A stretch of DNA of 23,639 nt from a virus (IMGVR_UViG_2874945390_000005), one strand, 5' to 3'. Shown: positions 9,876 to 11,378, counted from the first letter of the stretch. The notes: generated by a model not told the origin, from the letters alone. Translations and numbers: made by a program.

Positions 9876-10282
9876 AAAAAGAACAAATGGTAGTGTCCGC
9901 TATTGCCAGTACACCTCATTGACTTGATGAAATTGTGCACTTCAACCGAGGTTTGCAGCGGCGCGTTACTGAAGCCTTTAGGCCACACCCCGAACTTCTC
10001 TTTGTAGGTATGAGCGCACCATCCGTCACTCAGTGGCTTACCTGTCGCGTTGCGGTAATTCTGATAGCCCTTGATCTCACTCCACCACCGCTGTTTTTCC
10101 TCGCGGCTGTATTCGCGTTTCCCTTTGTTTACGCGAGAGAGTTTTCGATCGCGGTCTGTTGCCACATCATCGCCACCAAGAGGACGAAACCCACATTTGG
10201 GACACATGTGTACACCAGCAGGCTTCATGAAGTGGCATTTGGGGCATTCTCTGGGAAGTTTTTCAGCTTTTAACCTCGCCAC
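9872..10282 (-). CDS. Zinc-ribbon protein (CPKC...CPKC), 3' end replaced by IS600 sequence; native part 9919..10282
   Basis: GTG start at 10282-10280 lies 20 nt upstream of the helicase stop. MARLKAEKLPRECPKCHFMKPAGVHMCPKCGF... The last 15 codons are read from the IS600 right end. Confidence 0.5.
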   Translation of the reverse strand: MARLKAEKLPRECPKCHFMKPAGVHMCPKCGFRPLGGDDVATDRDRKLSRVNKGKREYSREEKQRWWSEIKGYQNYRNATGKPLSDGWCAHTYKEKFGVWPKGFSNAPLQTSVEVHNFIKSMRCTGNSGHYHLFFF

Positions 10283-11378
10283 CGCCAGCAGACGCTTTCA
10301 TTCCGTCATTTTTGCCCGGCAGTTCGTCATACTCGATATCCTCGGGGAAACCCAGCCGATGAACCGTGCCAGAATGGTCGAAAATCAACGCACGTTGTTT
10401 ACCTGGGGCTGTACGTAACGCTCTACCTATGCACTGCAACCAACGGATTTCTGATTTTGTCGGACGGGCATAGATCAGGCAGCGAACATCGCTGTCAAAT
10501 CCCGCAACCAGTACGCCGACGTTGACAATTATTTTGGTCACGCCCTCTTCAAAACGGCGAATGATGTCCTGTCGTTCATCATGGAGGGTATCTGCCGTCA
10601 TCACCTCTGCGCCAATACCGGCCTGTAAAAACTCACGGGTAACAAAATTCGCATGCGCAACATTCACACAGAAGCAGATCGTCGGCAAATCCTCACCATT
10701 CTCAAGCCAGTTGCGAACGATATCGCCAACCAGATCCGAACTCCCCATGATGGATGCGAGCTGCTCCTCGTTGTAATCCCGTCCAAATACGGTGTTACTG
10801 GTTTTTACGCCAGCCAGATCAGGCATTGAGGGGGCAAAAAACTCATAATCGCTCAGATCACCACGCTGAATAAGTTCACGAATCGTTGTAGGCTTGATCA
10901 GGCATTCGTAGTACTTCCCCATCCAGGCTGCGAACGGGGTACCGGAAAGTCCAAGAACCCTGATGTCTCTGTCCCGGATAACCTCAAGTAACGCACGACG
11001 CTTCATGTGTGCTTCATCGATGATCAGCAGATCGATGTTGTTAGGAAACTCACGACGGATCAGCGTGTCGGCACTGGCAATCTGAATCAGTCGTGACGGG
11101 TCATAGTTAGGGTGATCACGCCATACAAAACTGATTTCTTCCCACGGCAAACCGTATTCGGTGAAACGTTCCGCTGTCTGGTTCAGCAGGATGGTGTACG
11201 GACAGACAAACATCACTCGCATACCACGTTCAACCATTCCGGCGGTGACGAATGCTGCAAGACCAGTTTTGCCAGAGCCAGTGGGTGCATACATCAGGTA
11301 CGTGCGATGCTGTTTCCACTGGTGCCGCAGCTGGTTTAAACCGCGCTCTTGAGCAAAGTTTGGGATTATTTTCAGCAT
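10263..11378 (-). CDS. Superfamily-2 DEAD/DEAH-box helicase, probable phage replication protein
   Basis: ATG at 11378-11376 with GGGGG upstream. Motifs APTGSGKT (Walker A), LLIIDEAHM (DEAH), LSGTP, QCIGRALR. Confidence 0.85.
   Translation of the reverse strand: MLKIIPNFAQERGLNQLRHQWKQHRTYLMYAPTGSGKTGLAAFVTAGMVERGMRVMFVCPYTILLNQTAERFTEYGLPWEEISFVWRDHPNYDPSRLIQIASADTLIRREFPNNIDLLIIDEAHMKRRALLEVIRDRDIRVLGLSGTPFAAWMGKYYECLIKPTTIRELIQRGDLSDYEFFAPSMPDLAGVKTSNTVFGRDYNEEQLASIMGSSDLVGDIVRNWLENGEDLPTICFCVNVAHANFVTREFLQAGIGAEVMTADTLHDERQDIIRRFEEGVTKIIVNVGVLVAGFDSDVRCLIYARPTKSEIRWLQCIGRALRTAPGKQRALIFDHSGTVHRLGFPEDIEYDELPGKNDGMKASAGGGEVKS

Follow-up and report, generated by a model that had tools for sequence, protein, structure and literature searches.

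The two overlapping open reading frames (ORFs) at the replication position of this prophage appear to be the remains of one gene, and we put the probability at about 0.95 that what lies here is a dead eru1A copy in a cryptic Shigella boydii prophage, a case of ordinary gene decay. The window, meaning the whole stretch of 23,639 nt that was analysed, carries three lesions in this part. In the first, an A was inserted into a run of three A's, so that the frame shifts after residue 370 and translation ends two codons later, leaving the second ORF as the out-of-frame remainder of the helicase gene. In the second, a rearrangement associated with IS600 took away the last 20 eru1A codons, the whole primase gene, ninB, and the nin and Q region. 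In the third, a small conserved gene just upstream suffered deletions of 10 nt and 1 nt. The eru1A gene and its replication module are already known biology, and the intact pair of Eru1A and the Toprim primase Eru1B would take the place of lambda O/P in lambdoid and Stx phages of the Eru1 type.

In the ORF list, the first frame (ORF1; 371 aa, ATG start) occupied positions 10263–11378 and the second (ORF2; 136 aa, GTG start) positions 9872–10282, both on the minus strand. They overlapped by exactly 20 nt (10263–10282), which agrees with the original prediction of a CPKC...CPKC ORF starting from a GTG inside the helicase 3ʹ end. The DEAH helicase with complete core motifs that had been proposed for ORF1 was recovered as well, with motifs I (APTGSGKT), II (DEAH, within LIIDEAHM), III (SGT), and VI (QCIGRALR), and with Pfam scores above the cut-offs for ResIII (57.2 bits vs. 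22.5), DEAD (41.9 vs. 26), and Helicase_C (44.1 vs. 23.5, residues 222–323). ORF1 is a superfamily 2 helicase of the DEAH/ResIII type, containing both RecA-like domains and motifs I, II, and VI, and it matched the PHROGs family phrog_16, "DNA helicase", with an E value of 3.7e-100. For ORF2, Pfam returned a double-zinc-ribbon match below threshold and nothing else, and the C4 zinc ribbon, ECPKC-x10-CPKC, was located at 10193–10246. ORF2 also matched, weakly, a later stretch of the same phrog_16 profile (positions 635–682), further along than the match of ORF1, which gave the first hint that the two frames belong together.

The identity of the gene was established by alignment with Eru1A of phage TL-2011c (YP_007001450.1). 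ORF1 was identical to its residues 1–371 at 360 of 371 positions (97%), and ORF2 to residues 367–486 at 115 of 120 positions (96%), collinear with ORF1. The 5ʹ part of the eru1A pseudogene (10263–11378, minus strand) thus holds helicase codons 1–370, an out-of-frame Ser codon, and TGA, as defined by Pfam, PHROGs, and the Eru1A alignment, and the 3ʹ part (9919–10267, minus strand) holds residues 371–486 in the same alignment, that is, the zinc ribbon and most of the helical C-terminal domain. Megablast against phage genomes gave 97.4%–97.6% nucleotide identity over 9919–11391 to Stx phages of the genus Oslovirus, including Ss-VASD, Lyz12581Vzw, PA2, and ArgO145. A single gene of 1521 nt, whose product is a 506-aa "DEAD/DEAH box helicase", fills the region in the Oslovirus phages, in TL-2011c, and in prophages of E. 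coli. This gene is followed, with an 11-nt overlap, by the gene for a 323-aa primase (Zn_Ribbon_Prim + DUF7146 + Toprim_3) and then by NinB/DUF1367, NinG, NinH, and Q.

The Eru1 unit consists of eru1A (helicase), eru1B (Toprim protein), and eru1C (DUF1367); it stands in for lambda O/P in non-lambdoid Stx phages, and its presence is scored by more than 80% coverage and identity of eru1A–C (Llarena et al. 2021, PMC8044961). By this measure the window lacks the unit, as eru1B and eru1C were absent downstream, where IS600 and then the DUF2737 and Ead/Ea22 genes were found instead. The intact 506-aa Eru1A frame was absent too, being interrupted by the A insertion at 10268–10271 and truncated by IS600 at 9918/9919. 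The window copy is the same gene as TL-2011c eru1A, and both lie after cI/cro and a gene of the phrog_1347 family. Compared with the gene in TL-2011c and the Oslovirus phages, however, the window copy loses its frame after residue 370, lacks residues 487–506, and has neither eru1B nor eru1C beside it.

The interval 10260–10300, which the original prediction had singled out for a possible indel, was aligned with three intact relatives, namely Ss-VASD, Lyz12581Vzw, and E. coli JNEC-KY176. DNA alignments placed a 1-nt insertion at 10268–10271 on the minus strand, where the window has four A's (A4) and the closest intact relative has three (A3). Between that relative (GGTTAAAGCTG) and the window (GGTTAAAAGCTG), the difference was one extra A in the window. 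At the same site, Ss-VASD reads GGTTAAGGCTGAG and JNEC-KY176, the closest intact relative across the whole region, reads GGTTAAAGCTGAA, compared with GGTTAAAAGCTGAA in the window, a change from A3 to A4. The helicase frame here runs GTT AAA AGC TGA (...EVKS-stop), and the wild-type continuation A-E-K-L-P-R-E-C-P-K-C sits in the +1 frame. Removal of one A restored a collinear frame of 486 native residues plus 15 encoded by IS600, and the protein alignment was collinear across the frameshift point.

The exact 371-aa product was found on 12 contigs, comprising the 5.1-Mb chromosome CP026836.1 and 11 short Logan contigs assembled from public sequencing runs. CP026836.1 is listed as Shigella boydii (PMC12817139). 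The A4 run was also present in CP026836 and in the Illumina-derived contig ERR200292, the sole Logan contig that was read at this site; its occurrence in independent assemblies indicates a real, lineage-specific mutation rather than an assembly error. The split allele was seen solely in this one set of 12 near-identical contigs, and a 45-nt sequence of the frameshift allele had no exact match in the genome contigs of GTDB species representatives, which do not include this lineage. The 371-aa product and the 506-aa protein shared one cluster at 90% identity with 619 members, and nine of the 15 members listed were 506 aa long. When the repaired gene was compared with that of Ss-VASD, there were 16 synonymous and five non-synonymous codon differences in the core, and 13 and one, respectively, in the C-terminal part. 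The synonymous excess in both halves indicates that purifying selection acted on them as coding sequence during their divergence, and hence that the frameshift is recent.

Homologues were examined for a fused or a split arrangement, and one fused protein was found in all of them, down to about 30% identity. Using the whole 506-aa protein in tblastn, at least 80% was covered in 162 phage records, and each sampled row was one uninterrupted piece, including those from Fels-1 (66%), Vibrio (60%), and a Pelagibacter phage (31%), as well as Klebsiella and Pseudoalteromonas. With the C-terminal 136 residues, 130 phage records were matched, with hosts including Klebsiella, Providencia, Vibrio, Pseudoalteromonas, Pseudomonas, and Pelagibacter; in the annotated sampled rows the match lay in a gene labelled as a helicase, except for three with uninformative labels. 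A single helicase CDS of 497–552 aa with the primase directly after it was present in Ss-VASD, Lyz12581Vzw, TL-2011c, JNEC-KY176, Klebsiella phage KPP5665-2 (552 aa), Pseudomonas phage PS-1 (497 aa), and Vibrio phage 1.115.B (510 aa), and the cI–cro context recurred in PS-1 and KPP5665-2. Other temperate phages, namely Salmonella Fels-1, KPP5665-2, PS-1, Vibrio 1.115.B, and the Pelagibacter phage Baldr, share the fused layout (497–552 aa, 30%–68% identity), in which the superfamily 2 core, the C4 zinc ribbon, and the helical tail form an intact single ORF, unlike the interrupted and shortened copy in the window. The same type of primase follows in the three of these loci that were inspected (KPP5665-2, PS-1, and Vibrio 1.115.B) but is absent in the window. 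Two separate genes with their own ribosome-binding sites, the arrangement that had been named as speaking against a split gene, were the opposite of what was seen.

No free-standing zinc-ribbon gene was present among the homologues examined, down to about 30% identity. A search with the 116-aa native C-terminal part returned four short proteins and no others, and of the three that were inspected, one was a fragment at the end of a contig, one a broken copy, and one a partial entry. One of them (P0019) was cut by the contig end and another (P0017) was a fragment of another broken copy; both keep the end of the helicase core, "DHSGT..RLG.P", and are followed by the primase. These short stand-alone hits were therefore rejected as separate zinc-ribbon genes, being fragments with a helicase-core end. 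Separately, an unrelated Logan contig from SRR30563993, of metagenomic or isolate origin, contained at 584–2102 a helicase copy fragmented into 211, 58, and 190 aa ahead of an intact primase and NinB; this copy is either a pseudogene that arose independently or the result of poor assembly.

The 3ʹ end of the gene is lost at a full-length IS600 element (copy 1; 1264 bp, 8655–9918, plus strand), delimited from the sequence and from the identical start in a second copy, with orfA at 8719–9021 and orfB at 9057–9875 on the plus strand. The loss of the native 3ʹ end of the zinc-ribbon ORF at IS600, as originally proposed, was borne out: homology to the relatives ended at 9919, and the IS600 end, TGAGGTGTACTGGCAATA, began at 9918. 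This divergence of the alignments at 9918/9919 indicates that ORF2 owes its last 15 codons and its stop to IS600. The tail so derived, MRCTGNSGHYHLFFF plus stop (9872–9918, minus strand; DNA and protein alignment), replaced the native last 20 residues of Eru1A (KTIAYAKGRKKAMTGGQHAD), and the eru1A 3ʹ end, beginning AGACCATTGCCTATGCC, was missing from the window.

Copy 1 was flanked by CTT and TTG, without a 3-bp target duplication, and the genes on its other side were not the primase but unrelated DUF2737 and Ead_Ea22/DUF551 genes (7791–8551, minus strand), which are of early-left type and in the wrong orientation. The lack of a target duplication together with the unrelated genes beyond it indicates that copy 1 is a rearrangement joint, not a simple insertion. 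At this joint, the last 20 eru1A codons were lost through rearrangement or deletion, together with eru1B, eru1C, and the nin and Q region. Copy 2 (17376–18639) has the same orientation and is flanked by TAC on both sides; it splits a RecT gene (16725–17378, continuing after 18640). Matches in E. coli carry the annotation "IS3-like element IS600 family transposase".

The count of IS copies in the 23.6-kb window was at least five, and the IS load and decay around eru1A are typical of prophage decay in Shigella. IS3-family copies were also observed at 5178–6083 (minus strand), 6364–7573 (plus strand), and 20380–21584 (minus strand), and a DDE_3 transposase ORF (2733–3518) lay between two ORF6N antirepressor-like ORFs (1354–2136 and 3837–4262). 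A tyrosine integrase ORF on the minus strand started at 912 and reached position 1 of the window.

The helicase gene, running from 11378 downwards after cI/cro, occupies the O/P position of lambda, and the earlier placement downstream of a Cro-like gene was correct, since a divergent cI/cro pair precedes the helicase. The cro-like HTH gene (12273–12512, minus strand; Pfam HTH_3) stands at the start of the rightward early operon, and the cI-type repressor gene (12579–13337, plus strand; Pfam HTH_3 and Peptidase_S24, and the gene calls of the source genome) diverges from it. Beside cro, a PR-like sequence, TTGACA-16-TAATAT (12566–12539, minus strand), was recognised as a consensus match only; in the scan for promoters and terminators, counts were not above those in shuffled controls. 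An apparently intact HicA/HicB toxin–antitoxin pair (13744–14333, minus strand) adjoins cI and occupies the same place in JNEC-KY176.

Between cro and the helicase there are two small genes, which had gone unmentioned in the original prediction. A gene of the phrog_1347 family, the broken upstream partner, was traced at 11372–11747 (minus strand) by alignment with E. coli JNEC-KY176 (L003:4054–4440), and it has lost 10 nt near 11568 and a single nucleotide near 11405. In intact form, this gene encodes 128 aa (family range 125–165 aa) and overlaps the helicase start by 7 nt, and phrog_1347 matches were obtained in the three relatives checked, namely Ss-VASD, E. coli, and Klebsiella phage KPP5665-2. 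Its product may be the origin-recognition partner of the helicase–primase pair. In a Vibrio phage, a RepL-like initiator was noted at the equivalent position. The upstream gene of the window is a different allele from that of the Oslovirus phages. Homology to these Stx phages starts only at 11391, exactly 13 nt before the helicase ATG, and the window allele of the upstream region was found in only 15 of 5426 E. coli genomes. Judging from the alignment, position 11391 looks like a mosaic recombination joint at a gene boundary.

The original prediction had offered two readings of the overlap, a frameshift split of one ancestral gene and translational coupling of two genes; the former was upheld and the latter was not, as the homologues examined are all fused. 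Under coupling, the 371-aa helicase would be one real product and the zinc-ribbon protein another, with their expression linked through the 20-nt overlap. Overlaps of stop and start are common in phage operons, the genuine eru1A/eru1B junction itself overlaps by 11 nt, and the start-type GTG of ORF2 does fall inside the overlap. Against this, every relative examined was fused in one frame and none had the two-ORF layout, and the split allele was confined to the 12 near-identical contigs. The start of ORF2 speaks in the same direction. No GGAGG-like Shine–Dalgarno sequence was present in the 30 nt upstream of the GTG (AAAATGACGGAATGAAAGCGTCTGCTGGCG), in line with the earlier remark that no obvious ribosome-binding site precedes it. 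Six codons before the GTG, a TGA closes the frame of ORF2, which indicates that the GTG is simply the first start-type codon that an automatic ORF finder encounters. The opening five residues of ORF2 (M-A-R-L-K) come from helicase sequence read out of frame and are not matched in homologues; homologous sequence resumed five codons after the GTG. An independent gene call, that of the source genome, started ORF2 at ATG 10228, inside the zinc ribbon, a start that would drop the first CxxC, and this choice by another gene caller indicates that ORF2 has no real start signal. The 20-nt overlap has no biological meaning and is set by the nearest out-of-frame start-type and stop codons, and we consider coupling extremely improbable.

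A programmed or tolerated +1 slip of the ribosome or the RNA polymerase on the A4 run would restore the fusion of helicase and zinc ribbon and leave the gene functional. Such a slip is conceivable in that the tRNA-Lys on AAA could re-pair one base further on, after which GCT GAA AAA CTT would be read as the wild-type A-E-K-L, so that re-pairing at A4-G would recreate E-V-K-A-E-K-L. However, a +1 shift is needed, and at the slip position there is no rare codon or stop in the A site; the site AAA-AGC-TGA also has neither a Shine–Dalgarno-like stimulator of the prfB type nor an in-frame −1 heptamer. Four A's fall far short of the runs that give efficient transcriptional slippage. No intact phage with the A4 allele was found, conservation of the site lent no support to a slip, and the product would bear the IS600-encoded tail and would have neither its primase nor its upstream partner. 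We give this explanation as little credit as coupling. Still less probable is that the extra A is a homopolymer error of sequencing or assembly and that the gene is intact up to IS600. Single-base homopolymer indels are a typical error of long-read assemblies, but the identical 371-aa product occurred on 12 contigs, 11 of them short Logan contigs, and the ERR200292 contig carried the same A4 run. Even with an intact frame, eru1A would still be truncated by IS600.

Intact Eru1A is one chain, in which two RecA-like helicase domains are followed by a linker, then by a C4 zinc ribbon, and finally by a small C-terminal domain made of helices. The four Cys residues of the zinc ribbon were invariant in the alignment of distant homologues. 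The C-terminal domain (Eru1A residues ~421–486; 9919–10110 in the window) was modelled by AlphaFold as three helices with pLDDT above 90, and its G-W, G..P, E, and K positions did not vary among homologues with identities as low as ~27%–40%. A profile of the C-terminal region, compared with PDB sequences, matched only generic zinc ribbons, bL32 and Spt4/RpoE″; for the helical tail, no PDB relative was detected by sequence profile. When the AlphaFold model was compared with the PDB by Foldseek, no match reached E ≤ 0.001, and the best E value was 1.7. The zinc ribbon and helical domain are conserved in phages ranging from those of enterobacteria to one of Pelagibacter, yet these searches matched them to no solved structure.

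E. coli RadD is a DNA repair helicase with a zinc finger after the core. RadD (YejH; PDB 6jde, 7r7j) was the best solved relative of the core by sequence, with an E value of 2.8e-16 over the second RecA-like domain. The RadD model NF053632 was likewise the best NCBIfam model, yet its score of 87.6 bits lay below the curated cut-off (720), a shortfall which indicates that the window helicase is not a RadD equivalog. A RadD-like tail was considered but found no support, as the C-terminal profile missed RadD and Foldseek aligned only 29 zinc-knuckle columns with an E value of 3.9.

From its position and domains, intact Eru1A would open the DNA around the phage origin, in partnership with the primase whose gene lies immediately downstream. 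The position after cI/cro and the constant linkage to a Toprim primase are the grounds on which the pair is taken as the phage's own replicative helicase and primase, following the argument of Llarena et al. (PMC8044961). The Eru1 module shares its genomic position with lambda O/P, and presumably also the role in the rightward early operon, but the two have no sequence relationship; O and P bring in DnaB from the host, but helicase and primase are both encoded within the Eru1 module itself (PMC8044961). As read from its sequence, the replication module in the window is non-functional: its helicase gene is interrupted and cut short, there is no primase, and the partner gene upstream is broken.

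None of the observations spoke against the reading as a dead eru1A copy. The 371-aa product keeps a complete core and may have residual ATPase or helicase activity on derepression. Beyond this, we regard it as very unlikely that a truncated core made on cI inactivation acts alone, for example as an obstacle to the replication of incoming Eru1-type phages, or that a low level of +1 slippage on A-AAA-G yields a near-full-length protein.

The decay of one eru1A gene goes further than what had originally been seen here, which did not include the known eru1A gene, the deleted primase, the broken upstream gene, or the role of IS600 as a rearrangement joint. The two "genes" of the window should be annotated as one eru1A pseudogene. 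With a broken helicase and no primase gene within the window, this prophage remnant is probably precluded from replication by its own module, and the region offers an example of how IS expansion and small indels take apart prophage replication modules in Shigella.
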